Source: a virus (Duplodnaviria > Caudoviricetes). From it: a DNA stretch of 64,000 nucleotides. The stretch lies in IMG/VR virus record IMGVR_UViG_3300025267_002170; one strand, 5' to 3'. The notes below the pieces were generated by a model that saw only the letters and a program-made list of their open reading frames with translations, did no database searches and was not told the origin of the DNA. The position numbers and the translations under genes are program-made. Positions 21,425 through 56,815 of this stretch are shown here, piece after piece (position 1 is the first letter of the stretch; each line of letters opens with the position of its first letter).

Positions 21425-21427
21425 TTA

Positions 21428-25912: not shown

Positions 25913-27571
25913 ATGGTTGGTTCACAGAACTTAACAAGAAAGAGAAGAATCCTTTTCTGTGGGGAGGCTTCCTATCTAAGCACTGGCTACGCTACGTATA
26001 CCAGAGAGGTTTTGCGTAGGCTTCATGCAACTGGCAAGTATGATATAGCAGAACTTGGAACCTATGGTAAGCCAGAGGAGCCTGAAATTAAAGATGTTCC
26101 TTGGAAATTCTATCCAAATATACCGGACATAAATAATACAAAAGCTGTTGAAGAATACAACTCAAACAATATAAACCAGTTTGGTGCTTGGAAATTTGAA
26201 TCGATATGTCTGGATTTTAAACCAGATATAGTATGTGACATACGTGACTTTTGGATGATGGAGTTTCAGGAAAGGTCTCCGTTTAGAAAGTTCTATAACT
26301 GGACCATAATGCCAACGGTTGATGCCGCTCCTCAACACAAGCAGTGGATTCATACTTATGCTAATGCCGATGGTGTGTTTACCTATTCTGATTGGGCACT
26401 GTCTTCTCTCAAAGAACAAAGCGGAGCAGCTATAAACTGCCTTGGAAGCGCTCCACCCTCCGCAGATTCATCTTACTCTCCAGTGCAAGATAAAGAGGCT
26501 CACAAAAGAAGTCTTGGATTTGAAGACGGTGTAAAAATAATTGGAACAGTTATGCGAAACCAAAGACGCAAACTGTATCCAGACCTTTTTGAAGCATTCA
26601 GAATGTTCTTAGACAAGAGTGGAAGAACCGATGTCTATTTGTATTGCCACACCAGCTACCCCGACCTCGGCTGGGACTTGCCAGAAATAATGATGAAGTG
26701 TGGGGTGGCAAGTAAATGCCTGTTTACATATATTTGTAGCGAATGCGGCTATGTGTTCCCAGACTTCTTTAAAGATGCAATCTCTCAGTGCAAAAAATGC
26801 AATAAATTCTCTGCAAAGCTTTCCAATGTTAGAAACGGCGTACCAGTAGAGATACTTTCTTCAATAGTTAATTGCTTTGACCTGTATGTACAATATGCAA
26901 ACAGTGAGGGGTTTGGATTGCCGCAAGTAGAAGCCGCCGCCTGTGGAGTTCCAGTCATGAGTGTCGACTACTCTGCTATGAGCAGCGTCATAAGAAAACT
27001 CGGAGGAACTCCTCTCAAGCCGAAAACTCTCTACAAAGAGTTAGAAACTGGATGCATGAGAGCGGTTCCTGATAATGAACACACTGCTCAAAAGTTCGTA
27101 GAGTTTTTTGATTTGCCACAGGCAATGCGTATGAAAAAGGGATTTGAGTCAAGGAAGCTTTTTGAAGAACATTATCAATGGAACCAAACAGCTGATAAAT
27201 GGGAACAAAGATTTGATTCTGTAGAAATTCTGCCCGAATCTGAGACTTGGAAATCACCGCCAAGAATTCACTTACCCAGCGACAGATACCCAGAGGGTAT
27301 GGACAACAAAAATTTAGTGGACTGGCTTATAATAAATGTCTTGGGGGAACCAGAAAAGCTAAACTCCTATATGTCTTCTAGGCTTGTCAGAGACCTGAAC
27401 TATGGACAGACTACAGAAGGAATGGGAGGAATATACTATAATGAAAACTCCCTTTTAGATTCGGCTCCCAAGACTATGGTATTTAATCCACACGACGCTT
27501 ACAAGCACATGCTAGAGTTGTGCAATAGAAGAAACTATTGGGAGAAAATGAGGCATAAGGTTCTGTTATGA
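25913..27571 (+). CDS. GT-B (GT4-like) glycosyltransferase with an internal Zn-ribbon
   Basis: TGYATY, RNQRRK, EGFGLPQVEAAACGVP and a CSECG...CKKC insert. Confidence 0.85.
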   Translation: MVGSQNLTRKRRILFCGEASYLSTGYATYTREVLRRLHATGKYDIAELGTYGKPEEPEIKDVPWKFYPNIPDINNTKAVEEYNSNNINQFGAWKFESICLDFKPDIVCDIRDFWMMEFQERSPFRKFYNWTIMPTVDAAPQHKQWIHTYANADGVFTYSDWALSSLKEQSGAAINCLGSAPPSADSSYSPVQDKEAHKRSLGFEDGVKIIGTVMRNQRRKLYPDLFEAFRMFLDKSGRTDVYLYCHTSYPDLGWDLPEIMMKCGVASKCLFTYICSECGYVFPDFFKDAISQCKKCNKFSAKLSNVRNGVPVEILSSIVNCFDLYVQYANSEGFGLPQVEAAACGVPVMSVDYSAMSSVIRKLGGTPLKPKTLYKELETGCMRAVPDNEHTAQKFVEFFDLPQAMRMKKGFESRKLFEEHYQWNQTADKWEQRFDSVEILPESETWKSPPRIHLPSDRYPEGMDNKNLVDWLIINVLGEPEKLNSYMSSRLVRDLNYGQTTEGMGGIYYNENSLLDSAPKTMVFNPHDAYKHMLELCNRRNYWEKMRHKVLL

Positions 27572-28698
27572 AGGTATTATTCGTAGGACACTATAGAGAA
27601 GGAACTGGCTGGGGAAATGCAGCTATAGACTATATTCTGTCAATGGATTCTGCCGGAATAGATGTTGTTTGTAGACCAATAAAGCTTAACTCTAGAAACG
27701 TAGACCTTCCAGAAAGAATACTTGAACTTGAAAACAAAAGTTCTTCTGGGTCCGACGTATGCATACAGAATGTTTTACCACACCACATGGATTACAATGG
27801 AAGGTTTAAGAAAAATATAGCGCTTTATTTTATAGAGACCTCTTCTTGCGCTCATTCCATTTGGCCCAATAGAATAAATCAGCTTGATGAAGCTTGGGTG
27901 TGTTGTAATCATAATATAACAGCTTCTAAAAACAGCGGCATAAATATACCGTTATCAGTAATCCCTATCCCTTGCGATGTTTCTAGATATGAAAGTAGTT
28001 ATGATAGGCTTAATGTAGAAACAACCGAAAATACATTTTGCTTCTACTTTATTGGAGAAGTGACTAGAAGAAAAAATCTTGCAGCATTAGTTAAAGCATT
28101 TCATTTGGAATTTTCTCCTAATGAACCAGTATCTTTAGTTATAAAAGCAAACAAGTTTGGAGAAACTCCAGAGTCTCTATTCTTGCACATACAAGAAATT
28201 TGCGAACAGGTAAAAAGAAATCTAAAGCTGTATAAGGACACTAAGGACTATAAGAAAGAAGTTGTTTTAACACAATACCTAACAGATGAAGAGATGCTTA
28301 AGCTTCATTCTTCAATGGACTGTTTTGTAATGCCAAGTTTTGGAGAGGCTTGGTGCATACCGGCATTTGACGCGATGGGATTTGGCAATACTCCTATTTG
28401 TACAAACGTTGGCGGTATGGCAGACTTTGTTCAAGATGGTGGAATTCTTGTTGACGGAAGTCCAGAGCCAGTGTTCGGAATGGTGGATACTTTTCAAGAC
28501 ATATGTACTGGACAAGAAGACTGGGTCAATGTTAACATAAGACTTCTGCAAACTTCAATGAGACATGTGTACACTCTAAAAAATACAAACAAGAATGTAT
28601 ATGAACACAAAAGAAACATTTGTAGAAAAGATTCATATAACTATTCTTATGAAAACATCGGAAGCCTAATTAAAGAAAGGTTGGAGAATGCCAGCTAG
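27568..28698 (+). CDS. GT4-like glycosyltransferase
   Basis: TGWGNA, RRKN and PSFGEAWCIPAFDAMGFG. Confidence 0.85.
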   Translation: MKVLFVGHYREGTGWGNAAIDYILSMDSAGIDVVCRPIKLNSRNVDLPERILELENKSSSGSDVCIQNVLPHHMDYNGRFKKNIALYFIETSSCAHSIWPNRINQLDEAWVCCNHNITASKNSGINIPLSVIPIPCDVSRYESSYDRLNVETTENTFCFYFIGEVTRRKNLAALVKAFHLEFSPNEPVSLVIKANKFGETPESLFLHIQEICEQVKRNLKLYKDTKDYKKEVVLTQYLTDEEMLKLHSSMDCFVMPSFGEAWCIPAFDAMGFGNTPICTNVGGMADFVQDGGILVDGSPEPVFGMVDTFQDICTGQEDWVNVNIRLLQTSMRHVYTLKNTNKNVYEHKRNICRKDSYNYSYENIGSLIKERLENAS

Positions 28699-29728
28699 CC
28701 CTATGTCTGCTATATCTAGGGCGGCTACCCGAGAATCGGGCGAGCCTCTTAATATACTAACCTTTCCTACGCATGAAAGGTATGAAACCACCCTGTCAAA
28801 AACGGGACATAACTTTTATGCGCTGACTAACGACACAATGAAAGACTGGAATGTTGACCACGGAGATATTCCAGACAATTATCATATTTATAAAGCTGCT
28901 GGAAACTCCATAAGCGTTCCTCTTCATTTAGACTTCGATTTAATATTCTCTCAGAGCAAGTTTGGACAGTTCGAACTATCTAAGAACATGGCAAAGTCTC
29001 TACATCTTCCAATAGTAACCCTAGAACATACCCTTCCACTCCACAAGATTCCTGACGGGTGGCCACAGGAACAGTTCTTGTCCTTCAGCCAGATGACCGG
29101 GTGCAGAAACGTCTTTATATCTGATTACAGCATGAAGGAATGGGAGTGGGACAAAAGAGAGGACAGCAGGGCTATTTACCACGGGATAGATTCAGAGATA
29201 TTTTCTCCAGACGAAAGCTGCCAGAAGATAGACCATGTGCTATCTGTGGCGAACCAGTACAAGCAGAGAGACTACTGTCTAGGATACAGCCTATGGGAAC
29301 AGGTTACCAATGGACTGCCGATAAAGCTGGTTGGTGACAACCCCGGAATGTCCGAGCCGTCGAGTTCTATCGAAGACTTAGTTTCTTCTTACAGAACCGC
29401 TAAGGTTTTTCTCAACACCTCAACGGTTTCGCCAATTCCAATGTCACTCCTTGAGGCGATGTCATGTGGATGCGCCGTTGTTTCTACCGCAACCTGTGTT
29501 GTTCCAGAAATAATAGAGAATGGGGTGAATGGTTTTATTACAAACTCCTCAGAGGAGATGAAATACTACCTAGAACTTCTTCTTTCAGATGAAGGAGATT
29601 CCATACGTTCTTCAATGGGACAAGAAGCCAGAAATACAATTCTTTCAAAGTTCTCTGTAGATAGGTTTATTTCTGAGTGGAATGAAGTTTTTGAAGAGGC
29701 TTCTCAAACAGTATATACAGGTGCATAA
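28688..29728 (+). CDS. GT4-like glycosyltransferase
   Basis: HGID, PMSLLEAMSCGCAVVST and ENGVNGF. Confidence 0.85.
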   Translation: MPASPMSAISRAATRESGEPLNILTFPTHERYETTLSKTGHNFYALTNDTMKDWNVDHGDIPDNYHIYKAAGNSISVPLHLDFDLIFSQSKFGQFELSKNMAKSLHLPIVTLEHTLPLHKIPDGWPQEQFLSFSQMTGCRNVFISDYSMKEWEWDKREDSRAIYHGIDSEIFSPDESCQKIDHVLSVANQYKQRDYCLGYSLWEQVTNGLPIKLVGDNPGMSEPSSSIEDLVSSYRTAKVFLNTSTVSPIPMSLLEAMSCGCAVVSTATCVVPEIIENGVNGFITNSSEEMKYYLELLLSDEGDSIRSSMGQEARNTILSKFSVDRFISEWNEVFEEASQTVYTGA

Positions 29729-30153
29729 TGAAGGTAAATCTTACTATAAAACCTAGTAATGTCTCAGGATATCTAAACATCAACGCTGCTGAAGGAGGAG
29801 ATATCGCTGCATTCGGCAACATGGTCAGCGATTCTGAAGCCGTTGAAATATTAGCAACAGATATAATTAACTTTGTTCCTATGGAAAAAATAGAAGAGCT
29901 AATAGATGGCTGGATTAAAAAACTGAGACATGGTGGAAAGTTAGTAATAGGTGGAGTAGATGCTTTCGAAGTTTGCAGAGCAGTGTCTCACACCTCTCTT
30001 TCTATAAAAGAGTTTAATCAAATTATTCACGAGGGCAGGTCCAGCCAGATTTCAATATCTGACCTTTCAGAAATTTTATCAAAAAAGGGCTTGACTATTT
30101 TAAAGAAAAGGCTAAGCGGATTTAATATGATTGTGGAGGCTCAAAGGCCATGA
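29728..30153 (+). CDS. Degenerate class I methyltransferase-like protein
   Basis: GYLNIN and W.KKLRHGGKL, but no GxG SAM motif. Confidence 0.5.
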   Translation: MKVNLTIKPSNVSGYLNINAAEGGDIAAFGNMVSDSEAVEILATDIINFVPMEKIEELIDGWIKKLRHGGKLVIGGVDAFEVCRAVSHTSLSIKEFNQIIHEGRSSQISISDLSEILSKKGLTILKKRLSGFNMIVEAQRP

Positions 30154-31016
30154 GTAAAGATACTACAAATAGCGGCACTAAAGAGGGTGAATCTTTTGAA
30201 ATAACAACTGCGTGCGTTGATTGCGTTTTTGCTAAGTTTGTTGGTAACACCCAGTCCGATTGCGAGCTTGGAAGGATAGAAAAATTTAAACAGAACGGCA
30301 CTAAGGTTGAAGAAGCTTACAATGATGAAAAAGAATTCTTTATAGTTAAGGGATTCTGCAATGGTCATCGAAACGATTTTTGGAAAGAAACCGGAACCTA
30401 CCATAGGCCTTTCTACAAGAATCCCACAGAAAGAGTAAGGCAAGAGAACCTAATACGATGTGGATTCAATGTTCTTATGACAAAAGGTCACAGTATAGAA
30501 GACCTGAAAAAAACTATAGACTCTATAGTCAATCAAGAAGAGATAAATCCATACTATATCATAGTGTCTTGCAGCGCTGATGTAGAGAGATATGAGATTG
30601 TCAATTATCTACAAAACCTCTTGCAGCCAAAAGAAATAAAGTTCTTTTTTGTTAGCATAGCGGATGGAGAAGCCACCGCAGACAGATGTCTGGACGTTTC
30701 TTTTGCCAGAGCAAAGAATGGATACTATGCAATCTTTTCTTCTGGAGATATTGTTCCTTCAAACTTTTTGTTCAAAATAAATCATGCCTTAAATGAAGAA
30801 ATGTTGAGAATTGTGGCGCTAGGGCCAGAAGAAAATAGTATCAGTGGTTTATTTATGAACGCAACAACCTATAAACTTTTGCGTGGAAATATTGTTAAGC
30901 CAATTATGGAAAAAATACACATGCTTGCAGACGCAAGGGGCGAGCACTATCTAATCAAAAAGTGGGACGAACTACCCGATGAATCGAAAGCCGATAGTTA
31001 CTCTTCTAATAGCTAA
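30150..31016 (+). CDS. Hypothetical protein: Cys-motif N-domain + degenerate GT-A-like domain
   Basis: CVDC...C...FCNG; TIDSIVNQ resembles the start of a GT2 domain. Confidence 0.45.
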   Translation: MSKDTTNSGTKEGESFEITTACVDCVFAKFVGNTQSDCELGRIEKFKQNGTKVEEAYNDEKEFFIVKGFCNGHRNDFWKETGTYHRPFYKNPTERVRQENLIRCGFNVLMTKGHSIEDLKKTIDSIVNQEEINPYYIIVSCSADVERYEIVNYLQNLLQPKEIKFFFVSIADGEATADRCLDVSFARAKNGYYAIFSSGDIVPSNFLFKINHALNEEMLRIVALGPEENSISGLFMNATTYKLLRGNIVKPIMEKIHMLADARGEHYLIKKWDELPDESKADSYSSNS

Positions 31017-31773
31017 CTATAATTATGCCCACTATATTGAGAGCGCAGTACAAAGCGCTATCAATCAAGACTACGATGGGCCAATTCAAGTTTGCGTCAT
31101 AAATGATGGGTCAACTGATGACTCGTGGTCTGTTATTAGGTCAATGTGTAGAGCAGATGACACTCCCATCATTACTCAAAATATATCTGAGAATAGAACT
31201 CTCATAGCAATAAACAGAGAAAATGGTGGAGCAAGTGTAGCAAGAAATACCGGGATAGATTACACTTGGGATTTTACTGACATTTATGGGATACTTGACG
31301 CTGACGATTATTATTACGAATCAAAAGTAAGAAAATGTGTGGACAAGCTGATAGAAAATCAGCCTCATGTTGGCGTTGTGTATGCAGATTACGATATAAC
31401 TTACACTGAATCTAACACCGTTGTAAGAGAATATAAACCTCCATATAACAGAGCGGCACTAATGAACCAATGCATGATTCACAGCGGCGCTTTGATAACA
31501 AAACAAGCTCTAGACTTTGCAAGAGATGACAAGGGTCAAATTTTTGACCCAGACTTACATGGTCCGGGTAGCCAAAGTTTTATTGGATGCTCTGAAGACT
31601 ACGATTTGTGGATAAGAATAAGTGAAAAATTTATGATGTTTCATATCCCAGAATCTCTAGCCATGATGAGAGAAACCGGAAGCAATCAAACCACAAATGT
31701 CACACTTGAGAGTCATCAGAGAACGCAATCAATCATTATGGAAAAAATGAAACGTCGTGCGGCTGATGTATGA
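30979..31773 (+). CDS. GT2 glycosyltransferase
   Basis: IANYN, INDGSTD, NGGASVARNTG, LDADD and EDYDLW. Confidence 0.92.
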   Translation: MNRKPIVTLLIANYNYAHYIESAVQSAINQDYDGPIQVCVINDGSTDDSWSVIRSMCRADDTPIITQNISENRTLIAINRENGGASVARNTGIDYTWDFTDIYGILDADDYYYESKVRKCVDKLIENQPHVGVVYADYDITYTESNTVVREYKPPYNRAALMNQCMIHSGALITKQALDFARDDKGQIFDPDLHGPGSQSFIGCSEDYDLWIRISEKFMMFHIPESLAMMRETGSNQTTNVTLESHQRTQSIIMEKMKRRAADV

Positions 31774-32456
31774 ATAGATTTATATCTGAAATTAAAAAAA
31801 GCTACGATGATAATATTTCAGTGGCTATACTTGGTAACGAGACCGATTACAGGGTCAGGTCTTACGGACCAAAGTGTCTACTAAAGCACGGCAGTTCTAC
31901 TATAATACAAAATCAAATTAAGCTTATAGGAGAAACATCCTGCATATCTGACTTGGTTGTTGTGCTTGGTTTTGAATGTGAAAAGATTATTAATTACATA
32001 CCAGAACATGTTAGAATAGTAGAAAATCAACTTTACTCTGAAACAAACTCTTCGGAAAGCTTAAGGCTCGTAATAAATAATATATGCGGAGACAGGCTGT
32101 TAATTATAGATGGCAACATACTGATAAGCAGGAATGCTTTCAAAAAACTTGACTTCTCCCGTTCGTTTGCTCTATGTCATAAAAACGGCAAGCCAAAAAA
32201 CGAGATAAGCGCATCTAAAATTGGGGACCACATAGGAAACTTTTCTTTTGGTCTTGAAAACTGCTGGGACGGAGTTGTTTTCTTGCAAGGAAAAGAATTC
32301 GGACTTCTCAGAAAGGCTTGTACAGACAAGGGAAAGGGTAGATTTTTTGTTTTTGAATTGTTAAACCTAGTAATAGATAATGGTGGAAAAATTGAAATAC
32401 AGGAATGCAAGGCTGGAGACATAAAAGTTATTAATTCCATCAAGGACATAGCATGA
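31770..32456 (+). CDS. NTP-transferase-like (LicC/choline-phosphate cytidylyltransferase-like), degenerate
   Basis: GPKCLL, VVLGF, ENQLYSETNS..SL and INSIKDI; the LAAGxGxR motif is replaced by LGNETDYR. Confidence 0.65.
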   Translation: MNRFISEIKKSYDDNISVAILGNETDYRVRSYGPKCLLKHGSSTIIQNQIKLIGETSCISDLVVVLGFECEKIINYIPEHVRIVENQLYSETNSSESLRLVINNICGDRLLIIDGNILISRNAFKKLDFSRSFALCHKNGKPKNEISASKIGDHIGNFSFGLENCWDGVVFLQGKEFGLLRKACTDKGKGRFFVFELLNLVIDNGGKIEIQECKAGDIKVINSIKDIA

Positions 32457-33505
32457 GAGTAATGATATCTAGCGATGGTTCTACCGCGCACTTCTTTATC
32501 AGGAAGGGCTGGGCGAGCGCCTTCAGTTACGCCGGTCACGAAACCATCCTGTGGGACATCAAGACTAAAAATGCTTTCGATGCCTTTGATGAATTTGAAC
32601 CAGACTTATTTATAGGTCAAACTTATAATATAGATGAGTCTTTAATTAAGTGCATCAGCGCTCGTCCAGAAATGAAAGTGATTATGAAAGCCCCGGACTG
32701 GGGTGATATACAAAAAGATATAGACCCAGAAAAGTACAATGTTTTATTTGTATCTGATAAAGATAAGCATTACGTAGAAGCCTTAAAAAGACAAACGGGA
32801 AAGCCCGACTTTGTCTTTGCTCACTACACACAGAAATGTATTGAAAGAACCCACAACGGATGGGAAAATCTTGGGGTCAGGTCTGTGGGCCTTTTGAACG
32901 CCGCAGACATTTTTGATTACACCAATGGTAGAGAAGTCCCCCATCTAAGAAGCGACATGTCTTTTGTTGGGGGATACTGGGGATATAAAAGCAAAAGCTT
33001 TAATAGATACTTTATGCCCTTTCTCTATCCAGTAGATAAGTATAACGTAAAGATATTCGGTAACCAGCCTTGGCCAAGTACGCAATACTTGGGATTTGTT
33101 TCGGACGGTGTTGTAAAGGACGTAATGGCATCAGCTACTATTTGTCCTAACATAAGCGAGCCACACGCTCAGGACTTTGGAATAGACATAAATGAAAGAA
33201 CTTTTAAAATTCTATCGAATAGGTGTTTTTGTATTTCTGATTATGTGTCCTCTTTAGCGGAGGAAGTTTATACAAATAACGAGGTTCCCTTTGCAAAAAC
33301 TCCAGAAGAGTTCTTTGACTTGGTTAATCACTTTCTAAATAACCCGAGAGAAAGGCTGGAATACATTGAAAGAGGATACGAAACCGTAATAAACAAGCAT
33401 ACTTATTTCCATAGAGTAATGCAGATATGTGGCGAACTGTCCTTGGAGAAAGAAAAAACTGATTGCAAACAAGCCCTCGTGAAATTTATGGAGACAAGAG
33501 TATGA
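32453..33505 (+). CDS. Glycosyltransferase (CgeB/Glyco_trans_1_2-like)
   Basis: SFVGG, NISE...INERTFKI...ISD, and HTYFHR. Confidence 0.8.
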   Translation: MRVMISSDGSTAHFFIRKGWASAFSYAGHETILWDIKTKNAFDAFDEFEPDLFIGQTYNIDESLIKCISARPEMKVIMKAPDWGDIQKDIDPEKYNVLFVSDKDKHYVEALKRQTGKPDFVFAHYTQKCIERTHNGWENLGVRSVGLLNAADIFDYTNGREVPHLRSDMSFVGGYWGYKSKSFNRYFMPFLYPVDKYNVKIFGNQPWPSTQYLGFVSDGVVKDVMASATICPNISEPHAQDFGIDINERTFKILSNRCFCISDYVSSLAEEVYTNNEVPFAKTPEEFFDLVNHFLNNPRERLEYIERGYETVINKHTYFHRVMQICGELSLEKEKTDCKQALVKFMETRV

Positions 33506-39794: not shown

Positions 39795-40843
39795 TGGCCC
39801 ATATATTCAAACGCCCCACAGATTCCGCCAAAGGAATCGTAGTAATTTCTCACCAAGAAGCCTACAGGGGCAAAGACCATTATCCTGATATGATGAACAG
39901 GATAAGCGAAAAATATTTCATAGGTGTCCACTATGGTGGATTTTCTAATGGCGCTCCATATCCGGGCTTTGCCAGCTTCTTTATGGGAAGACCTTCAGTA
40001 ACAGATATATCACGAAGATATCCAGACGCTTTTGAAATTCCAATTGTAAGCTCTAACTTTACATCCACCGTTTTTAGAAAAGACCCCGAAGTAAAAAAGT
40101 ACTGGGACATAATTAATATTTCTAGAGCAGCTAATGTCAAGAAGCTAGACATATTCTTTAGAGAAATAAAAAAGATATACGGTAAAGGGTATAAATACAA
40201 GGTTCTTTTGATTTCCCCAAAGAGACATGAAGACACGCCAGAAGACCATTTTATGGATATAGAGGATGCGTACTATCGCATGTTCTCAAAAGAAGAGAGA
40301 CAGTTGTTTACACTCATGAGACTGGCTCAAAATTTAGAATTTAAAGGACTGAGCAAAACTCAGCTTTCTTATTTTTACCAGTCTTCCAAATGTGCAACCC
40401 TGTTTTCAGATTGTGAGGGAAGCCCCGGAGTGATTGCAGAGGCTTTGCTGACTGAGATACCGGTAGTCATGTATGCTGGCCAGCTTGGAAGTGGAAAAGA
40501 CTTCTTAACAGACGGCAACTCCGTGGTTTGGGAAGACTATAACAATGCCAATGAATGCCTTATTCGCGCGGTTGAAAACCATGACAAGTTTTCATTCGAT
40601 ACGGAGTCTCTCGCTAATGGATATAGAGAAGATAGGGGCTTAGAACAGCTAAAGATTTATTTTGATAAACTATATTCTCTGCATGGACAAGAGTTCGATG
40701 GAGAACTAATTAATACTGATGACTTAGTCAGTAGGCTTCCGTCTCACTATACTGAACTGCCTTGGGTAGACAGCAGGCTTTACAATGGCCACATGACTAC
40801 CGAAGAACATTATAATAAATTTTACTCGGAGCTTAAGATATGA
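39794..40843 (+). CDS. GT-B glycosyltransferase
   Basis: KKLD and EGSPGVIAEALLTEIPVV. Confidence 0.7.
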   Translation: MAHIFKRPTDSAKGIVVISHQEAYRGKDHYPDMMNRISEKYFIGVHYGGFSNGAPYPGFASFFMGRPSVTDISRRYPDAFEIPIVSSNFTSTVFRKDPEVKKYWDIINISRAANVKKLDIFFREIKKIYGKGYKYKVLLISPKRHEDTPEDHFMDIEDAYYRMFSKEERQLFTLMRLAQNLEFKGLSKTQLSYFYQSSKCATLFSDCEGSPGVIAEALLTEIPVVMYAGQLGSGKDFLTDGNSVVWEDYNNANECLIRAVENHDKFSFDTESLANGYREDRGLEQLKIYFDKLYSLHGQEFDGELINTDDLVSRLPSHYTELPWVDSRLYNGHMTTEEHYNKFYSELKI

Positions 40844-41541
40844 TTCCCGGTGAACATAAAAAACTTGAAGAACTTTCTGAAGACCAGAAACTGGAGATAT
40901 CAGAAGCTGCTAAGTATGACTATCTTGTTGCCAGTTGTAATTATGGCTCGGATTTTCATAGAGATAAACAGGTCATAAGAACAACCAAAGAGCTTGGTCA
41001 CGTATCCGTAGTATACTCTCAGATAATATCATGGGGAGGCAAACAGGACCGCCCCTTTAAAGTGCTGGATGTAGGCTCTGGACCCGGTGGTTGTATGAGT
41101 TGGCTTATAGCGCAAGGCGTAGACGCATACGGTGTAGACATCTCTAAAGAGTTTATTAAAATTTCTCAATCTAATTTTCCAGAAATAAGGGGCAAGGTTT
41201 TTAAAGGAAATGCAAAAAAACTCAAGAGATTCTCAGACAGTTCCTTTGATTTGGTACAACATCTTGATGGAATGGAGCATATACCAAAAGAATGGGAAGA
41301 AGATTGTCTAAAGGAGGCTGTTAGAGTATCCAGACAATACGTGGTTCATGAAAACGCTTGCGAAGATGCTTGGGCTGATGGTGTCTGCATAAATAACGGC
41401 TTCTCTGCTGCGCACATTAATGTAAAAACTTCGGAAGAATGGCTTCGTTTTTATGAATCTCATTCTAGTAGTTTAAATTATAAGATAATAGCTAAACATC
41501 TTACCAAAGAATATCTGGCAGTAATTCTAAAGAAGGTATAA
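40840..41541 (+). CDS. Class I SAM-dependent methyltransferase
   Basis: VLDVGSGPG, GVDIS, FSDSSFDLV and EHIP. Confidence 0.88.
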   Translation: MIPGEHKKLEELSEDQKLEISEAAKYDYLVASCNYGSDFHRDKQVIRTTKELGHVSVVYSQIISWGGKQDRPFKVLDVGSGPGGCMSWLIAQGVDAYGVDISKEFIKISQSNFPEIRGKVFKGNAKKLKRFSDSSFDLVQHLDGMEHIPKEWEEDCLKEAVRVSRQYVVHENACEDAWADGVCINNGFSAAHINVKTSEEWLRFYESHSSSLNYKIIAKHLTKEYLAVILKKV

Positions 41542-42251
41542 TGCCTACTTGCCATCGTCGTAAAATAACATTTTTTCACATTACTAAAACGGCAGGAACT
41601 ACCGTTGAAAAGTACCTTGGACTATTCAATAAGACCATGAATGCCGATAATGATACGGTAATGTTTGGCACTCTTAAACATGGACCAGCCCAGCACTACC
41701 CCTTTGAAATATTTTATCAATACAGACCGGAAGAAGAAAAAAATTATTTTAAGTTTTCTTTTGTCAGAAACCCTTACGACCGAATGGTTTCTCAGTATTA
41801 CTGGCAGCTTACACGAATGAGAAATTTGAAGGATACTTATAGTTTTAAAACCTTTCTTCTAGAGGCTGAAGAGCTAGTCTCTAATGCGATTTGTGTCTAT
41901 CCTGCCCCAACCCCTTATTTTACAGGCGACTTTTTTAACAATGACGAATTCATGAAGGTTCCCACCGGAAACAAAATACATTTCTGCCCTCAACATATGT
42001 ATATTTTTGATGAAGAAGACAAATTTAAACTGGACTTCGTTGGCAGTTTTGAAAACTTCACTGATGACTTTTCTCTTCTGTGTTTAATTATTGACGTTAA
42101 TGCAAGCATTCCTGCACGAGGCTTTGGATATCGAACCCACAATGTCTCTGCCGGAAGACCTCCTTATAGAGAAATGTACGATTCTACGACCAAAAAAATT
42201 GTAGAGCGTATGTATGAAAAAGATTTAGATTTACTAAAGTATACTTTCTAG
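41541..42251 (+). CDS. Sulfotransferase (Sulfotransfer_2 type)
   Basis: PAPS motifs HITKTAGT and FVRNPYDRMVSQY; HFCPQ; YEKDL. Confidence 0.88.
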   Translation: MPTCHRRKITFFHITKTAGTTVEKYLGLFNKTMNADNDTVMFGTLKHGPAQHYPFEIFYQYRPEEEKNYFKFSFVRNPYDRMVSQYYWQLTRMRNLKDTYSFKTFLLEAEELVSNAICVYPAPTPYFTGDFFNNDEFMKVPTGNKIHFCPQHMYIFDEEDKFKLDFVGSFENFTDDFSLLCLIIDVNASIPARGFGYRTHNVSAGRPPYREMYDSTTKKIVERMYEKDLDLLKYTF

Positions 42252-42265
42252 AATAAAGAAATACA

Positions 42266-43060
42266 ATGGCACACAAGATACTATTCGTGGTTGCCCATCC
42301 AGATGACGAAAGCTTGTGGATAGGAGGCATTCTAAATTTCCTCAGCAATAGAGAGGAAGTAGAGCCTTATGTTTTGTGCGCAACCGGAAGGCATCATCCA
42401 GAGAGATATAAAGAATTTGAAAGCGTTATGAATCTAATTGGAATAAATAATTGGTACGTTGGCGATGAAGATATTCCAGAAAGAGGTGGAATTCCCCTTC
42501 ATGAATTCCCAAAGTCTTTTGTCAACGGTCTTGAAAGTCTAGAACTAAATCCTGAAGATATAGATGTTATAATAACCCACCCCTTCCACGGCGACGAACA
42601 TCTTAATGGCCAACATGCTCAGCTATTTGCGGGGTTATTTTATCTCTGTAAAGATAAGGATGTTCCCTTTGGGTTCTTTTCAACAGTTGTCATAAGGTAT
42701 TATTCATTAAAACCGTTGCTGATGCATATGAAAAGAGACGGAGGAACCCACTTGATAAATTATTCTTCGTGTGAATCCATACCTCATACCGGCTACGGAC
42801 ATCATATAGTTGACTGTTCCACTATTACTCCAGAATATTTCTACCAGTTTAAAGTCGATTCAAAAATCAAGTCGGAAATGCTCTCGCTATATAAATCTAT
42901 AAATCAAGAAGAACATCAAAAAGGATACGCCTCTTGGGACAGTGATGTTGAGGGAGTATACTTTATGAGTGCAAAAGCCGCCTCTCCGTTTTTAAAAATA
43001 TGTGACAACATGGACGTTCCCGCTGGAAACCCCATATGCGGAATGCCTTTCGGGAGTTAA
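42266..43060 (+). CDS. PIG-L family N-deacetylase
   Basis: AHPDDE, R..E, THP..G and H. Confidence 0.8.
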   Translation: MAHKILFVVAHPDDESLWIGGILNFLSNREEVEPYVLCATGRHHPERYKEFESVMNLIGINNWYVGDEDIPERGGIPLHEFPKSFVNGLESLELNPEDIDVIITHPFHGDEHLNGQHAQLFAGLFYLCKDKDVPFGFFSTVVIRYYSLKPLLMHMKRDGGTHLINYSSCESIPHTGYGHHIVDCSTITPEYFYQFKVDSKIKSEMLSLYKSINQEEHQKGYASWDSDVEGVYFMSAKAASPFLKICDNMDVPAGNPICGMPFGS

Positions 43061-43061
43061 C

Positions 43062-43895
43062 ATGACAATACTTATAACCGGCGGGACCGGGTTTTTAGGC
43101 AGAAGCCTACTGAGAGAATGCTTGAACAACGATATGGATGTTATAGTATTGTCTCATTCTGAAATACGAGACAAAGAGATGCAGTTAGAACATCCAGAAG
43201 TAAAATCTTACTGCGTGGACATATCTACGGATGCTGAAATTTTAGATAGAATCGTAGAGCAGAACAATGTTGAGTATATAGTACACTGTGCTGCCATGAA
43301 ACATATAGGTATATGTGAAAACAATCCCACAAAAGCTATAGAAGTAAATATTAACGGCAGTAGAAATATAATTAGTGTGGCTAAAAAAAACAAGGTAAAA
43401 AATGTTGTTGCTGTAAGTACTGACAAAGCCATAAACCCTTCCTGTGTATACGGTTCTACAAAACTTCTTATGGAGAAGGTGATGCTAGAGAACAGCTTCT
43501 CTGTCATACAGGGCGTGAACTTTTTCTTCTCCAGTGGCAGCGTTCTGGAAATATGGCACAGCTGCATAAAAAACAAGGAGCCTATAAGGGTTAACATCAA
43601 TGACACCGTGAGATATTTTGTTAGCGCAAGCGACGTTGCCAAAAAAATCTTAGAGAATCTAGACACCAAGTCTTCGTACATAAGTCTTGATAGCTGTCAC
43701 AGAGTCAAGCTCCACAATTTGGCAGAGGCGTTTTGTGAGTATCACAATGTCTATAAGATAGAAGACTACGTACCAATATCCGCTGAGAAGATTGTTGAAG
43801 AAGTTCCAGACGGTATTCGAAATATACATGAGCCAGACATGGCAGAGCTTAAGGTCATGATATACAGACACTACAAGGGACAACGATGTCCATAG
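43062..43895 (+). CDS. PseB/CapD-like NDP-sugar 4,6-dehydratase
   Basis: TGGTGFLG, HCAAMKH, NINGS and STDKAINP..VYGSTK. Confidence 0.8.
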   Translation: MTILITGGTGFLGRSLLRECLNNDMDVIVLSHSEIRDKEMQLEHPEVKSYCVDISTDAEILDRIVEQNNVEYIVHCAAMKHIGICENNPTKAIEVNINGSRNIISVAKKNKVKNVVAVSTDKAINPSCVYGSTKLLMEKVMLENSFSVIQGVNFFFSSGSVLEIWHSCIKNKEPIRVNINDTVRYFVSASDVAKKILENLDTKSSYISLDSCHRVKLHNLAEAFCEYHNVYKIEDYVPISAEKIVEEVPDGIRNIHEPDMAELKVMIYRHYKGQRCP

Positions 43896-44542
43896 AACAT
43901 TCAGATATGAAAATGCTCCTTCGATTTAGAGAATCGAATCCAGAGGGAACTAGCTGTGCGATACTCGGGGATGTTTCTCTGCATAGCCTGTCTGGAATGG
44001 ATGAATTTAAGAACCTTCTAGGCTTCGACACCGTACACACTTTTGATATCAATGGAAATCCTACCCACAAAATAAATCTAAACGACCCTGTGCCAGAAGA
44101 GCTTTGTTCACAGTATGACTGGGTGATAGATTCTGGAACCTTGTACTGCTGCTTCAACATAGCCATGGTTTGGAAAAATATCCTGTCCCTGCTTAAAGAG
44201 TCCTCCTGCATAGTACACACGGGCAACCTATCTGGATTCTATGGAAGGGGGTTTTATTCTTTAAGCCCTGCTTTGTTTAGAGATTTTTATAGGGCCAATA
44301 ACTTTGAGATTTTAGGGATGGGAACTAAAACCAGACAAGTAAACCAATGGCATGTTTTCGACCCGAACAATACCTACCTAAACGAAGCATCTACAAGCTG
44401 TATGAAATTTCAAGAACACTCTGGTTCTTTCATAGAATTTATACCAAACGATTGCATGATTTATTGTTTCGCTAAAAGAGATAAGTCGACAGATTTTGTA
44501 GAGCCAGTACCACAGCATTTTATAGATACAGACGGAGCATAA
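43886..44542 (+). CDS. Methyltransferase-like hypothetical protein
   Basis: NLNDP, YDWVIDSGT..CFN and GFYSLSP pattern. Confidence 0.55.
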   Translation: MSIEHSDMKMLLRFRESNPEGTSCAILGDVSLHSLSGMDEFKNLLGFDTVHTFDINGNPTHKINLNDPVPEELCSQYDWVIDSGTLYCCFNIAMVWKNILSLLKESSCIVHTGNLSGFYGRGFYSLSPALFRDFYRANNFEILGMGTKTRQVNQWHVFDPNNTYLNEASTSCMKFQEHSGSFIEFIPNDCMIYCFAKRDKSTDFVEPVPQHFIDTDGA

Positions 44543-44544
44543 TA

Positions 44545-45267
44545 ATGCCAACGTTTCCATCGCAAGAAGAAAGCCAAACCATTCTAGACACCGTAGTTAG
44601 TGGCGACGGTCTATACAAGTTTGATAATTTCCTAACCGACGAGGAGGTTGAATCCCTTCGTGAAGAAATGGAATCCCAGTTTTCTGAGTTGAACACTGGA
44701 GATGAATACTGTTGTGACGGCACGGTGACGCCCGGCTCCTACCCCTTTGGAAAAATTTGTAGAATACAGCGCCACAACCTAAACAGATTTCCCTCCATGT
44801 TAAATGTTCTTAACAACGCATGGTTTTCTATAATGGCTGATGCATACTATTATGGTAACGCAAACAAGCTTTTACAAGTATTTTTTAGCCACGAGTACTT
44901 GCTTCCAAATCAGGTGGATGGAGTTACTAGAAATTCTGTTCTACACTTTGACCCATACCAAGCATTCAAGTTTATGATTTACATTACCGACTGCGAAAAA
45001 GAAACCGGGGCTTTTAGATACATCAAGGGTTCTCAGATAGAATCCAAAAAGATTAGAAACTTATATCAAATGCACGAACTATTAAATGATAAATACACTC
45101 TTGAGTCCAACCCCTCTATGGGATACTCTGAGGAGGATGTGGTTTACGCCGAAGCCTCTAAAGGCTCCCTTCTGATATTCGACACCGACATTATTCACGG
45201 GGGCGGAATTCTTCAAGAAGAAGGCTCTGAAAGAATGGCGATAATTGCCCACAACAGGAGGGGATAA
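44545..45267 (+). CDS. PhyH-like 2OG-Fe(II) dioxygenase
   Basis: HFD, YITD...GAFRYIKGS and GSLLIFD...HGG. Confidence 0.8.
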   Translation: MPTFPSQEESQTILDTVVSGDGLYKFDNFLTDEEVESLREEMESQFSELNTGDEYCCDGTVTPGSYPFGKICRIQRHNLNRFPSMLNVLNNAWFSIMADAYYYGNANKLLQVFFSHEYLLPNQVDGVTRNSVLHFDPYQAFKFMIYITDCEKETGAFRYIKGSQIESKKIRNLYQMHELLNDKYTLESNPSMGYSEEDVVYAEASKGSLLIFDTDIIHGGGILQEEGSERMAIIAHNRRG

Positions 45268-45268
45268 A

Positions 45269-45907
45269 ATGGAACACGTCAACTCTTGGAGAGATTCTGC
45301 CGACGTTTTCAAGCAGCAGCTTTCTCTTAATATGCGAGAGCTACAGTCCTCGTATCCCGTCCACTGGAAACATTTGGTTAAGTCCCTAGAATTCTTGACA
45401 ACCAAATGTGACGCAAGGAGACTGGTTGATATTGGCTGTGGGGCCGGTGTTTATTCTGAACTTATAAGAAAACACTTTCCCGAAATGTCTTACGTGGGAT
45501 ATGATTATTCTGATAGCGCCCTAGAAATTGCTAGAGGAAGTTGGCCTTCAGATACTGATTTTAGACTGGCTAAGTATCAAGATATATCTCCTTCCGACAT
45601 GGAGGATGGAGATGTAATTGTTGTCAATGGCCTTTTGGATATTCTTCCAAACGGAGATGAGGCTCTAGAACATCTCCTGTCTCTTTCCTGTAAATTTTTG
45701 CTGCTTCAAAGAATTAACCTAACTGCTGAGCTAAGTAACTATAGGGTTTACAGAGCTTATAATGTTATAGATACTTATGAATATAGACATAACGTATCAA
45801 GATTCTTCAACCTACTGAAGGAGCACGGATATTTATGTAAGTCTGATGAAATCATTGGATGTTCTGATTATCATGCCCTGAATGTTATGCTTATCAAAAA
45901 TGATTAA
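45269..45907 (+). CDS. Class I SAM-dependent methyltransferase
   Basis: LVDIGCGAG and YVGYDYS. Confidence 0.85.
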   Translation: MEHVNSWRDSADVFKQQLSLNMRELQSSYPVHWKHLVKSLEFLTTKCDARRLVDIGCGAGVYSELIRKHFPEMSYVGYDYSDSALEIARGSWPSDTDFRLAKYQDISPSDMEDGDVIVVNGLLDILPNGDEALEHLLSLSCKFLLLQRINLTAELSNYRVYRAYNVIDTYEYRHNVSRFFNLLKEHGYLCKSDEIIGCSDYHALNVMLIKND

Positions 45908-46847
45908 CTTCGCACATATAAATAACTACACAATAGATACCTCTATATTTTCAAATCTTCTTCATGATAAAATTGTAACTGAGTTTGAAGAAAGGTTTGC
46001 TGATTACGTAGGTGCAAAATATGCATGCATGGCAAACAGTGCCTCCAGTCTAATATATCTGGTAGGAAAAATATTTACAAGAACTTTTACAATACCCAGC
46101 ATGATACCCAATGTAGTTCCAAACGCAATCATAAATTCCAATTCGTATTTTACTTTTACGGATGATGTCGACTGGGTTGGTGATTCATATACACTTTGCT
46201 ATTCAAACCTGTTTAAGCAAAAGACAGTGGACTCTGCTCAGAAGGTAGAAAGAAACCAGTTTAAAAACGAATCCGACAATGAAATAGACACTATGATATT
46301 TAGCTTCTATCCTACAAAGCCCGTGGGTGGATGCGATGGTGGAATGATTGTGTCTGATGACGAGGGAATAATCGACCATTTTAAAATGTTTGTCATGAAT
46401 GGGACAAATAGTCGTCACAATAACTGGGAAAGAAACATTGAGTTGTGTGGGTGGAAGATGCACCCAAATTCAATTCAGGCTTATATAGCCAACGAAAATC
46501 TTAAGAGGCTTGATGAGAAGCAAGAGAGGATGTCTGAGATTAGAAAACTATATAATGAAGCTTTCTCTCTGAAGAATACTAGTAATCATTTATATAGGAT
46601 TCGTGTCTCTAACAACGACCTGTTTGTAAATCATATGAAGAAGAAGGAAATCTCTTGCGGAATACATTACAGGTGTTTGCATAACCACAAAGTATATGAG
46701 ATGGATGCATTAAACTGTGGAGAACCTATGCCCCTTTCTGAGAAAGCGAGTAAGGAGACAGTAAGTTTACCTTTTCATGAACAGTTAACAGATGAACAAA
46801 TTAAATATATCGTGGATGTCACCCATGCGTCTTCATATCTTATCTGA
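45900..46847 (+). CDS. DegT/DnrJ/EryC1/StrS sugar aminotransferase
   Basis: FEERFADYVG, DSAQ, SFYPTK...DGG, GIHY and SLPFH. Confidence 0.88.
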   Translation: MINFAHINNYTIDTSIFSNLLHDKIVTEFEERFADYVGAKYACMANSASSLIYLVGKIFTRTFTIPSMIPNVVPNAIINSNSYFTFTDDVDWVGDSYTLCYSNLFKQKTVDSAQKVERNQFKNESDNEIDTMIFSFYPTKPVGGCDGGMIVSDDEGIIDHFKMFVMNGTNSRHNNWERNIELCGWKMHPNSIQAYIANENLKRLDEKQERMSEIRKLYNEAFSLKNTSNHLYRIRVSNNDLFVNHMKKKEISCGIHYRCLHNHKVYEMDALNCGEPMPLSEKASKETVSLPFHEQLTDEQIKYIVDVTHASSYLI

Positions 46848-47208
46848 CGATAACGGAACATTGGTTCCGATAGAATTCTCAGAACTTCCTTTTGAAGCAA
46901 AGAGGGTGTTCTATGTAACTAATGTTCCCAAGGGAGAGGAAAGAGGGAATCACGCCCACTTCAGAACGCAACAAATTTTAGTGTGTGTGCAGGGACAGAT
47001 TATAGTAAAACTCCACGATGGAAAGAAATTGTTTAAGAAGCTTCTTACTCCTAATGACGCCATATTTGTTGACAAAATGATTTGGGATTCACAAGTTTTT
47101 ATGACCGGTGATGATGTATTGCTTTCGATATGTTCTACTCCATACGATAAGTCTGACTATATAGAAGATATGTCGTCATTTTTAGAAGCTAGGAGACACT
47201 TTAGATGA
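46816..47208 (+). CDS. FdtA/QdtA-like sugar 3,4-ketoisomerase (cupin)
   Basis: LPFEAKRVFY, RGNHAH and YDKSDYI. Confidence 0.88.
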   Translation: MSPMRLHILSDDNGTLVPIEFSELPFEAKRVFYVTNVPKGEERGNHAHFRTQQILVCVQGQIIVKLHDGKKLFKKLLTPNDAIFVDKMIWDSQVFMTGDDVLLSICSTPYDKSDYIEDMSSFLEARRHFR

Positions 47209-47678
47209 AAATTGGAATAATAATAGAAGACCTAAGCGCTTCGCATCTTTCTTATTGCTTGGTTAAAAAGCTAAACGAAATAGTTTCTGAAGACAGTACA
47301 AATGATTATACGATATTTGTTCAAAATATAACTTCGCATGTTCTTCCACCCAGATTTGCTGTTATGAACACTACAGAACTTCCCTACTTTGATGGGACTT
47401 TAATAGCAACCAGCATTTCTACATGCCTCACAGCGATTAAATCTATCTCTCCGTCTAAGAAAATATTCTATGTATGGGACTTGGAATGGATGAGAGACAC
47501 TGGAAGAAACTATGAACACAGCATACGAGCTTTTATAGACAAGTCAGTTGTTCTTGTCGCCCGAAGTGAAAGTCACTCCAAGGCTATAAAGAATTACTGC
47601 AACAAGACGCCTTCTTCTATAGTAGAAGATTTTAATATCAAAAAAATGATGGAGACTATAAACAATGAGATTTGCTGA
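47205..47678 (+). CDS. Hypothetical protein resembling an isolated GT-B N-terminal domain
   Basis: IATS, FYVWDLEW and ARS pattern. Confidence 0.5.
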   Translation: MKIGIIIEDLSASHLSYCLVKKLNEIVSEDSTNDYTIFVQNITSHVLPPRFAVMNTTELPYFDGTLIATSISTCLTAIKSISPSKKIFYVWDLEWMRDTGRNYEHSIRAFIDKSVVLVARSESHSKAIKNYCNKTPSSIVEDFNIKKMMETINNEIC

Positions 47679-48447: not shown

Positions 48448-48451
48448 AGAA

Positions 48452-49707: not shown

Positions 49708-49723
49708 AATCTCTGACAGTCCG

Positions 49724-49763
49724 AAAAAAGAAAGCCCCGGTTCTTACGAGCCGGGGCTTTTTT
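49724..49763. terminator. Bidirectional intrinsic terminator between the convergent operons
   Basis: A-tract, then AAAGCCCCGGTTC-TTAC-GAGCCGGGGCTTT hairpin, then T-tract. Confidence 0.9.
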
Positions 49764-49806
49764 GTTGTCACCCATGACAACGACAATTAAATTTGTTGCA
49801 GCTTTC

Positions 49807-50520: not shown

Positions 50521-50545
50521 TGTTAAATCTCCTTGAGTTTTTGAG

Positions 50546-51205: not shown

Positions 51206-51207
51206 GT

Positions 51208-56803: not shown

Positions 56804-56815
56804 GTCGGTTCCTTT

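Follow-up and report, generated by a model that had tools for sequence, protein, structure and literature searches.

A glycosyltransferase-rich gene island with a conserved core and no detected export genes in an uncultured lineage of marine tailed phages

The viral record IMGVR_UViG_3300025267_002170, a 64,000-nucleotide stretch of DNA that we refer to as the window, carries a glycan-building gene island at positions 25913–47678 and a smaller group of glyco-genes within its tail operon (block 2, 50546–58475). The island belongs to an uncultured, abundant lineage of marine tailed phages with genomes of about 150–167 kb and terminal repeats, in which its place is a fixed hot spot, with the replication module on one side and the end of the convergent tail operon on the other. 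It combines a six-gene core that is nearly universal in this lineage with a flexible part that differs even between close relatives. No flippase, polymerase, ABC permease, initiating transferase or multi-pass protein was found in the island, in 80 related islands or in complete relatives. The best reading, to which we give a probability of about 0.5, is that these enzymes glycosylate phage proteins in the cytoplasm without a lipid carrier. We favour a phage-protein acceptor because export genes are absent lineage-wide while a universal core includes an apparently phage-restricted key enzyme, and because block 2 stands among distal-tail genes, encodes an unusual Ser/Cys-rich protein and accompanies a serotype-like flexible part.

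The initial annotation had described a contiguous unit of about 22 kb and some 26 genes, including about ten glycosyltransferases (GTs), and we arrived at a very similar picture. The island is filled by 27 co-directional open reading frames (ORFs) on the + strand, which overlap or are separated by gaps of at most 15 bp. Nine GTs score at or above Pfam curated cut-offs (four of GT4 type, two GT2, one Glyco_trans_1_2 or CgeB-like, one GT8 and one GT29), and a tenth, of the GT-A type, was recognized by its fold. The core lies at the 5' end and consists of three GT4 enzymes, namely the 552-aa GT-B enzyme GT4-552 (25913–27571; Pfam Glycos_transf_1, 36.5 bits), GT4-376 (376 aa, 27568–28698; 53.3 bits) and GT4-346 (346 aa, 28688–29728; 60.8 bits), followed by a 141-aa protein with the look of a class-I methyltransferase (29728–30153; no Pfam match, weak PDB methyltransferase profile matches at E 0.2), a 288-aa protein with a Cys-rich beta domain and a predicted GT-A fold (30150–31016; AlphaFold2 pLDDT 86.7) and a 228-aa LicC/GlmU/IspD-like nucleotidyltransferase (31770–32456). 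The last of these gave weak NCBIfam matches, and its family profile matched LicC (1jyk) first, over the full length at E 5e-9, then GlmU and IspD. PDB profile searches classified neither the 141-aa nor the 288-aa protein; the latter was later resolved by its predicted fold, for which Foldseek returned TarP, RmlT, TarS and SpsA (E ~5e-6). A 264-aa GT2 enzyme (GT2-264, 30979–31773; 66.8 bits) lies between the GT-A and nucleotidyltransferase genes.

Downstream of the core, further GTs alternate with enzymes that make or modify sugars. The GTs are the CgeB-like GT-B enzyme (32453–33505; Glyco_trans_1_2, 78 bits), a GT8 (35908–36846; 25.9 bits, cut-off 24.3), a 293-aa GT2 (36843–37724; 30.3 bits), a soluble 206-aa GT29 sialyltransferase-like protein without a hydrophobic segment (37721–38341; 66.8 bits) and a 349-aa GT4-type enzyme (39794–40843; Glyco_trans_1_4, 27.5 bits, cut-off 27). 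To these may be added, as a lead, a 276-aa protein with a DDD motif (34454–35284) and no Pfam match, putatively GT-A/GT2-like, as 22 of its 30 named atlas neighbors are of the GT2 type (best score 0.94). The nucleotide-sugar enzymes named in the initial annotation (Fcl, NeuB, NeuA, PseB-like, DegT and FdtA) were all recovered by Pfam or NCBIfam, two of them below NCBIfam cut-offs: a GDP-L-fucose synthase-like short-chain dehydrogenase/reductase (SDR; 33463–34476; Pfam Epimerase 194 bits, NCBIfam Fcl 283 bits against a cut-off of 500) and a PseB/FnlA-like UDP-sugar 4,6-dehydratase (43002–43895; Polysacc_synt_2 159.6 bits, NCBIfam PseB 125 bits, sub-cut-off). The others are a 275-aa NeuB-family nonulosonate synthase (38338–39165; 254.6 bits), which is without the C-terminal SAF domain and matches TIGR03569 at positions 2–277 of 329, a NeuA-type CMP-sugar synthetase (39162–39794; CTP_transf_3, 97.9 bits), and a DegT-family sugar aminotransferase (from 45882) followed by an FdtA-type 3,4-ketoisomerase (from 46792; together 45882–47208; 116.6 and 115.6 bits). 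The DegT-FdtA gene pair also occurs in L143, an ENA contig about 90% identical to the window. With the LicC/GlmU-like nucleotidyltransferase of the core these make up the nucleotide-sugar enzymes of the island; several of their pathways are incomplete, as we saw no Gmd, NeuC, PseG/PseH or RmlA/RmlB, and host precursors would therefore be needed.

The tailoring enzymes that had been reported alongside were recovered as well. They include an FkbM-family methyltransferase (35238–35915; 68.6 bits), a class-I S-adenosylmethionine (SAM) methyltransferase (from 40840) with an adjacent Sulfotransfer_2 sulfotransferase (from 41541; together 40840–42251; 50.9 and 65.2 bits), a PhyH-type Fe(II)/2-oxoglutarate dioxygenase (44545–45267; 48.5 bits) and a second class-I SAM methyltransferase (45245–45907; Methyltransf_12, 42.8 bits). 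Counting the weakly matched 141-aa core protein, methyltransferase-like proteins number four in all. A putative PIG-L-like de-N-acetylase (42266–43060) matched weakly, at 23.5 bits and below the cut-off of 28.2. A 218-aa protein (43886–44542) had no Pfam or NCBIfam match and is 96% identical to its version in G002, an IMG/VR contig colinear with the window over 1388–58162 at about 95% nucleotide identity. The island closes with a conserved 157-aa gene (47205–47678), which marks the 3' boundary and has homologs at the same position in two relatives (G014 and G017) and in 19 loci. When compared with a strain about 95% identical, dN/dS was computable for 20 of 21 island genes, those of unknown function included, and ranged from 0 to 0.24; the genes are thus under purifying selection and hence functional and in use. 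Together with block 2 the window holds 12 firm GTs, and possibly up to about 17. The two blocks make up about 46% of it, in keeping with the earlier estimate of nearly half, and soluble sugar-building enzymes take up about 30 kb.

Membrane proteins were sought by Kyte-Doolittle hydropathy, scoring ORFs with at least two hydrophobic 19-mers. No such gene lies between 24.4 and 64 kb of the window, nor does either of the large islands of G014 and G017 (25–27 kb) contain one; of the 822 island ORFs that we collected from 80 related loci, a single one had two hydrophobic segments. Two complete relatives (G006 and G010, all ORFs of at least 60 aa) contained nothing resembling a 6–12-helix permease, flippase, polymerase or WecA, and in both the tape measure protein was the only long protein with several hydrophobic segments. 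Hidden Markov models (HMMs) were run against related genomes, six of them at least 90% complete, with positive controls that matched in 10–14 of 14 control genomes. Those for the initiating transferases Bac_transf (PF02397) and Glycos_transf_4 (PF00953) gave no match in 10–11 relatives, and those for Polysacc_synt/Wzx (PF01943), Wzy_C (PF04932) and ABC2_membrane (PF01061) gave none in 11. No scanned window protein had a Pfam match to an initiating phosphoglycosyl transferase. For the chain-length regulator the search was by hydropathy, with no multi-pass ORF in the islands or in G006 and G010, Wzz itself not having been searched for by HMM. The lack of flippase, polymerase, ABC exporter, initiating transferase and multi-pass protein, first remarked on for the island from sequence alone, extends to 80 related islands and to complete related genomes.

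This absence bears on the published default for comparable GT clusters of marine myophages, remodeling of the host envelope (PMC7029224, PMC12801897). There, phage GTs would act on host undecaprenyl-phosphate-linked intermediates at the inner membrane face, and the phosphoglycosyl transferase, flippase or ABC exporter, and ligase of the host would place a new O-antigen- or capsule-like glycan, which could exclude other phages or help to avoid grazers. O-antigen and capsule loci draw on these same gene families, FkbM methyltransferases and a LicC-like enzyme would suit decoration of a surface polymer, the core GT-A resembles the teichoic-acid GTs TarP, TarS and RmlT (TarP is prophage-encoded), and an island contiguous with replication genes might be expressed before the late genes. 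However, with no membrane component in 80 islands or 11 related genomes, a pathway of at least 20 enzymes would have to rely wholly on the substrate tolerance of the host primer, flippase and ligase. The core is also kept throughout this very broad lineage of phages, isolate bacterial genomes lack its key GT, the tail operon encloses block 2, and we saw neither an integrase nor a lysogeny gene in the window. We consider envelope remodeling rather unlikely.

Core presence was counted among 45 related loci with a full 10-kb flank. GT4-552, GT4-376 and the nucleotidyltransferase were present in all 45, GT4-346 in 44, the GT-A protein in 40 and the 141-aa protein in 35, the cluster of the latter covering 65 of the 80 related loci. 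By comparison, GT2-264 and the CgeB-like GT were each present in 22 of 45. The near universality of the core suggests an intrinsic phage function. Its first gene, GT4-552, has 3932 metagenomic homologs, on contigs of up to 177 kb, and at least 565 loci in IMG/VR. Across the 185,579 species of GTDB no more than 10 loci carry it; each of these is from a metagenome-assembled genome, the taxa are discordant, and no isolate is among them. On this distribution the family appears to be restricted to phages. The GTDB contigs, which belong to the present phage lineage (L127–L136, up to 152.7 kb), were binned as SAR202, Flavobacteriales, Chitinophagia, Alphaproteobacteria, Promethearchaeota and Hydrogenophaga. 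We rejected these bins as evidence for a host, given their discordance, which probably reflects mis-binning.

The predicted structure of GT4-552 (AlphaFold2 pLDDT 87.8) found its best PDB match in the chlorovirus NY-2A glycosyltransferase B736L (3oy2, E 7.5e-19). Inserted in its C-terminal Rossmann domain is a conserved Cys4 motif (C..C ... C..C, around residues 275–300), and a helical C-terminal extension of about 110 aa is missing from the closest solved structures. The next structural neighbors are MshA, BshA, sucrose-phosphate synthase and GlgM, all of which use small soluble acceptors; this weakly hints that the acceptor of GT4-552 may be soluble too. The same neighbors would fit a different outcome, in which the product is a free oligo- or polysaccharide, a glycosylated small molecule or a host protein (flagellin- or pilin-like) modified to reprogram the cell. 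In line with this, the islands of relatives hold an aldehyde dehydrogenase and an HAD-nucleotidyltransferase fusion, and block 2 of L143 encodes a protein with a weak MptE/Maf-like (PF01973) annotation. That match is weak, however, and a PDB sequence search did not confirm it. The swapping of cassettes between strains is hard to explain for an internal metabolite, and the island bears no resemblance to known small-molecule scaffold pathways. We judge such a product to be improbable.

Comparison of the 80 loci bore out the division of the island into a conserved core and a flexible part. On one side the hot spot is flanked by DnaE-C and SSB, often with a sigma factor. In the window this factor is of the sigma-70 family with regions 2 and 4 (25439–25912, + strand; Sigma70_r2 E 5e-16, r4 E 2.5e-7), its stop codon abuts the first island gene, and 39 of 80 related loci have a homolog upstream of the island. 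On the other side, three backbone genes that are not glyco-genes close the + strand unit (47665–49707) and face the end of the tail operon; they encode an HNH-like 260-aa protein (47665–48447; PHROG HNH E 5.6e-13), a 312-aa protein and a 115-aa Zn-ribbon protein. The island 3' end itself faces the tail operon end about 2 kb away. We considered whether the HNH-like gene might be a mobile homing gene, and rejected this, as it keeps its position at the 3' boundary in 31 of 34 relatives (46–64% identity) and so belongs to the lineage backbone.

Measured by hand from the GT4-552 start to the HNH-like gene, island length ranged from 6.4 to 27.6 kb in 31 relatives; at 21.8 kb the island of the window is large, although not the largest. 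The 822 island ORFs and the window proteins fell into 143 clusters, mostly in the flexible part, with representatives assigned to GT2, GT25, GT34, FkbM, the HAD-nucleotidyltransferase fusion and aldehyde dehydrogenase. The islands of G014 and G017 share with the window only the 5' core and the 3' end (SDR genes and the 157-aa gene), and their 15–20 middle genes show no detectable similarity to those of the window. Exchange was also seen at much shorter distances. In G002 the NeuB/NeuA genes are swapped for a NeuA-NeuB-212-aa set in the opposite order, at 32–40% identity (39–40% for NeuB in this rearranged cassette), and the methyltransferase-sulfotransferase pair (window 40839–42221) has no counterpart at its site, a different sulfotransferase-like gene being inserted elsewhere. 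Strain comparison at about 95% identity also revealed one extra 368-aa gene. Such cassette swapping between strains about 95% identical is the pattern expected of an exposed, serotype-like structure.

The contig is a tailed phage, neither cellular nor chimeric, because it carries a phage gene set and is colinear with relatives that include complete genomes with terminase and tape measure genes. Upstream of the island lie genes for class II ribonucleotide reductase, dCMP deaminase, dUTPase, PhoH, a UvsX-like recombinase, DnaB and primase, as well as dNMP kinase, ThyX, an exonuclease, a split DnaE with a DnaQ-like exonuclease between its halves, SSB and the sigma-70-family factor. Complete genomes with direct terminal repeats were found among the IMG/VR relatives (G006, 166.6 kb; G010, 161 kb). 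In G006 a long – strand operon leads from the gene for the large terminase subunit, by way of virion protein genes, to that for the tape measure protein (PHROG matches) and on to homologs of the 585-aa, 1239-aa and 237-aa proteins of the window. In L143 the order is tape measure protein (PF10145), 284, 585, 1247 and 263 aa, then the Ser/Cys protein. Cultured phages offer no close relative, their terminases being at most 27% identical. A DNA search with the DnaE region gave no match among them, and protein searches with DnaE, GT4-552 and terminase found only remote relatives (at most 34% identity); no host could be inferred.

The position of the island directly after the DnaE, SSB and sigma genes would suit hypermodification of phage DNA, with the GTs decorating hydroxymethylated bases against restriction. 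Some phage GTs are known to attach several sugars to 5hmC (bioRxiv 10.1101/2023.12.21.572611), and a dNMP kinase is present. Against this, the nucleotide genes (ThyX, dCMP deaminase, dUTPase) are those for ordinary thymidine/dTMP, and no ThyA-type synthase/hydroxymethylase (PF00303) was found in five complete relatives, in a search whose controls worked. Nor was there a Tet/JBP (PF12851) match, this search being without a positive control. The methyltransferases are small-molecule or FkbM types and not DNA C5 methyltransferases, and nonulosonic acid synthesis, sulfation and more than 10 GTs exceed any known DNA glycan. DNA as the acceptor is therefore highly improbable.

Block 2 comprises 11 genes on the – strand (50546–58475; Pfam). 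It interrupts the late operon in its distal-tail section, downstream of the gene for the tape measure protein, so that GT genes are embedded among virion structural genes. They encode a 263-aa protein with a DxD motif, a poly-Ser 294-aa protein with 27 Cys, a DUF6171 protein, a GT11-like protein and a GT2, followed by a methyltransferase, two paralogs, a GT2-like protein, a GT11 and a 219-aa protein. Of these, GT11 and GT2 can be assigned firmly and about three more GT-like ORFs only weakly, and the 263-aa protein, which has no family match, is possibly a GT-A. Block 2 is absent from G006 and G010. In L143 the GT11 (52029–52793) and GT2-like (52784–53617) genes are replaced by 248-aa and 221-aa genes (L143 14113–15508), the latter being the one annotated as Maf-like; Maf proteins are flagellin nonulosonic-acid transferases, and the annotation is weak and found no support in a PDB sequence search. 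A homolog of one block 2 gene occurs within the main island of G014, which indicates that the two blocks draw on one gene pool. The two paralogs (51208–52035 and 53584–54279, – strand) are 31% identical, share an FFAHAKG motif and have no family match; a third version, 39% identical, is found in L143.

Around block 2 the operon encodes proteins whose structural role we deduce from synteny and from atlas leads. The 1239-aa and 585-aa proteins (58477–63957, – strand), putative tail-tip or fiber proteins, are encoded two or three genes downstream of the tape measure gene. Their atlas neighbors are viral tail or baseplate clusters, and the order tape measure protein, 284, 585 and 1247 aa recurs in L143 at about 90% identity, and likewise in G006. 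A 237-aa Gly/Ser/Thr-rich protein is the product of the last tail operon gene (49807–50520, – strand), and its homologs end the operon in G006, G010, G014, G017 and L143. Searches of PHROGs, Pfam and PDB sequences returned nothing significant for these three proteins.

The Ser/Cys protein of block 2 (56816–57700, – strand) is a 294-aa acidic protein (pI 4.1) with its 27 Cys and about 40 Ser in the first 55 residues. Compared with G002, residues 1–150 are identical and residues 150–294 only about 60% so, and it is always the most diverged gene of its neighborhood, at 67–79% identity against about 90–99%. A half-conserved, half-diverged protein of this kind has the pattern of a receptor-binding protein, as judged from sequence. 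Only eight homologs were found in 5.8 billion proteins, and we rejected it as a general acceptor for this narrow spread; it could be a clade-specific acceptor at most, and the core must therefore act on something common to all members. In G014 (29985–39653) and G017 (45452–57541; L137–L142) a protein of 3222–4029 aa is encoded between the 1239-like and DUF6171-like genes, where the window has the 263-aa protein and the Ser/Cys protein. A giant fiber may thus have been swapped for a small, possibly glycosylated protein in the clade of the window.

In the mechanism that we propose, phage enzymes would divert host precursors into activated sugars: a CMP-nonulosonate via NeuB and NeuA, a GDP-6-deoxyhexose via the Fcl-like enzyme and a mannose-6-phosphate isomerase cupin, 4-keto and 3-amino deoxyhexoses via the PseB-like enzyme, FdtA and DegT, and a CDP- or UDP-linked unit via the LicC/GlmU-like enzyme. 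The cupin (117 aa, 17522–17875, + strand; MannoseP_isomer E 1.4e-21) is encoded outside the island, in the replication module, and may feed its supply of GDP-mannose or GDP-fucose. Its gene lies between those for dNMP kinase and ThyX and, among the relatives first compared, was found in L007 and L008 alone. An inner glycan would be laid down by the core (three GT4 enzymes, one GT-A and the nucleotidyltransferase), and a variable outer part would be added by the strain-specific GT2, GT8, GT29, GT4 and CgeB-like enzymes together with GT11 and GT2 of block 2, and tailored by the methyltransferases, sulfotransferase and dioxygenase. The whole synthesis would be cytoplasmic and would use a soluble acceptor, most probably virion proteins, the best local candidates being the distal-tail proteins encoded around block 2. 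The product would leave with the virion at lysis, and no lipid carrier, flippase or polymerase would be needed. Here the sugars are named at the family level only, and it is from gene content and context that we infer the order of steps and the acceptor.

Several points weigh against glycosylation of virion proteins. No acceptor could be pinpointed from sequence, and the Ser/Cys protein, with its eight homologs, cannot be the acceptor of a lineage-wide core. The main island is co-directional and contiguous with replication genes, not with structural genes. GT-B and GT-A fold similarity says little about the acceptor, and the GT4, GT2, GT8, GT25 and FkbM families are typical of O-antigen assembly. 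The GTs of O-antigen assembly are also soluble or peripheral proteins, acting on undecaprenyl-linked intermediates at the inner membrane face, and the lack of transmembrane segments is therefore not discriminating by itself. Finally, the search for export genes drew on the 64-kb window and on relatives, and about 89 kb of the genome to which the window belongs lies outside it.

Put together, the results allow a fuller scenario that is tentative and on the whole somewhat doubtful. A globally abundant marine lineage would coat its virions with a complex glycan without a lipid carrier, three phage-specific GT4 enzymes building a conserved inner core below an outer part that is hypervariable and serotype-like. 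The strain of the window would have an outer part that is sialylated (GT29 with NeuB/NeuA), fucosylated (GT11 and the Fcl-like enzyme) and sulfated or methylated, and in its clade the 3,200–4,000-aa fiber of relatives would be replaced by a mucin-like, Ser-rich (poly-Ser) tail protein that has GTs of its own.

The scale of the island had been likened to that of giant eukaryotic viruses, a fair comparison, as the autonomous glycosylation clusters of Megavirinae comprise 6–33 genes, with clade-specific content and rare bacterial sugars (PMC10117803, PMC9614988), against 27 + 11 ORFs here. Like the island, the systems behind the Megavirinae fibril and chlorovirus capsid glycans unite many soluble GTs with nucleotide-sugar pathways that lead to rare sugars of bacterial type; in both cases content is clade- or strain-specific, and export machinery is missing. 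A chlorovirus enzyme, B736L of NY-2A, is the best structural match of the core GT4, but at the sequence level there is no orthology with the giant-virus clusters. In giant viruses the virion glycans have been demonstrated chemically, whereas the phage island is known from its genes. It differs further in its bacterial host, in belonging to a tailed phage of about 150–167 kb and in having a fixed six-gene core with a hypervariable tail.

Among phages, virion glycans on capsid and tail tube have been reported for mycobacteriophages (as cited in PMC12619734). Freeman et al. (2023, as cited in PMC12619734 and PMC12801897) are reported to have described soluble phage GTs that modify virion proteins in the cytoplasm without a lipid carrier, the mechanism that we propose here. 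These phages carry few GT genes, Maravista having two (PMC11256854). At least 12 GTs, sugar biosynthesis and tailoring enzymes are found here by comparison, and the main block adjoins replication genes. In mycobacteriophages the GT genes lie beside the capsid gene and are not known to be accompanied by nucleotide-sugar pathways.

Pelagimyophages and cyanomyophages carry hypervariable "host recognition clusters" rich in GT and lipopolysaccharide (LPS) genes beside tail-fiber genes (PMC7029224), and cyanophage S-SCSM2R has 13 GTs and 22 cell-wall genes, 13 GTs being a published "possible record" for a marine phage (PMC12801897). Such clusters have been read as modifying the host surface or DNA (PMC7029224, PMC12801897). 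The claim of an undescribed system was therefore overstated, since GT-rich hypervariable regions beside tail-fiber genes were already known in marine T4-like phages. The likeness is plain: large marine phages, with GTs and sugar-nucleotide genes in a hypervariable region that also holds tail-fiber genes. However, pelagi- and cyanomyophages are T4-like myoviruses, unrelated to the present lineage, which is set apart by its conserved core, by at least 12 firm GTs within about 30 kb, by nonulosonic-acid, GT29 and sulfotransferase genes and by a documented absence of export genes. What is new is thus this density and repertoire (GT29, NeuB/NeuA, sulfotransferase, GT11) in an unrelated lineage, together with the fixed hot spot, the near-universal six-gene core, a flexible part through which island length varies from 6.4 to 27.6 kb, and a block 2 inside the late operon.

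Two groups of bacterial loci invite comparison. Flagellin glycosylation islands and serine-rich-repeat adhesin loci combine soluble GTs with nonulosonic-acid synthesis and glycosylate Ser/Thr in the cytoplasm without Wzx/Wzy. The poly-Ser protein flanked by GTs is reminiscent of the serine-rich-repeat adhesins, although the window has no Pfam match to Maf (PF01973) or GtfA/GtfB (DUF1975) and no accessory Sec or flagellar genes, and the acceptor would exit by lysis rather than by secretion. O-antigen and capsule loci (Wzx/Wzy or ABC) resemble the island in their clustered GTs, nucleotide-sugar and tailoring enzymes and in their operon-like packing, but differ in having the membrane-embedded parts that are missing here (initiating transferase, flippase or permease, and polymerase, as well as, by hydropathy only, the chain-length regulator).

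Should the glycan prove to be carried by virions, the lineage would be the first among bacteriophages whose glycosylation apparatus matches that of giant viruses in scale, and virion "serotypes" would form a new axis of marine phage diversity. In the ocean, virion glycans and not fiber proteins alone would then make up a main variable surface at which phage and environment meet, with a bearing on host recognition, adhesion to particles and mucus, resistance to proteases and grazers, and carbon export. The findings also bear on what the many "LPS genes" of large marine phages modify. The six-gene core with the phage-restricted GT4-552 offers ready targets for expression and assay, and the flexible part is a reservoir of soluble GTs, GT29 included, and of carbohydrate sulfotransferases, which could be of use in glyco-engineering.

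Some further features of the window and its relatives were observed. Promoter and terminator scans gave counts near those of shuffled sequence and were of no use for delimiting transcription units or judging timing. At 237–4096 the window opens with two trypsin-like (Trypsin_2) proteases that have hydrophobic segments at the N terminus and are absent from G006 and G010. The tape measure protein of L143 (1–2852) is 5376 aa long and shows, besides PF10145, a faint match to an ADP-ribosyltransferase-toxin family. The split DnaE (19502–24447) consists of an N-terminal gene with the PHP domain and polymerase core and a C-terminal gene with fingers, HhH and OB domains. Between them lies a DnaQ/RNase T-type exonuclease gene (22131–22814), with an extra 161-aa ORF in the clade of the window, and this arrangement of a split DnaE with a central exonuclease is kept in relatives down to 49–57% identity, including G006, G010 and L010.

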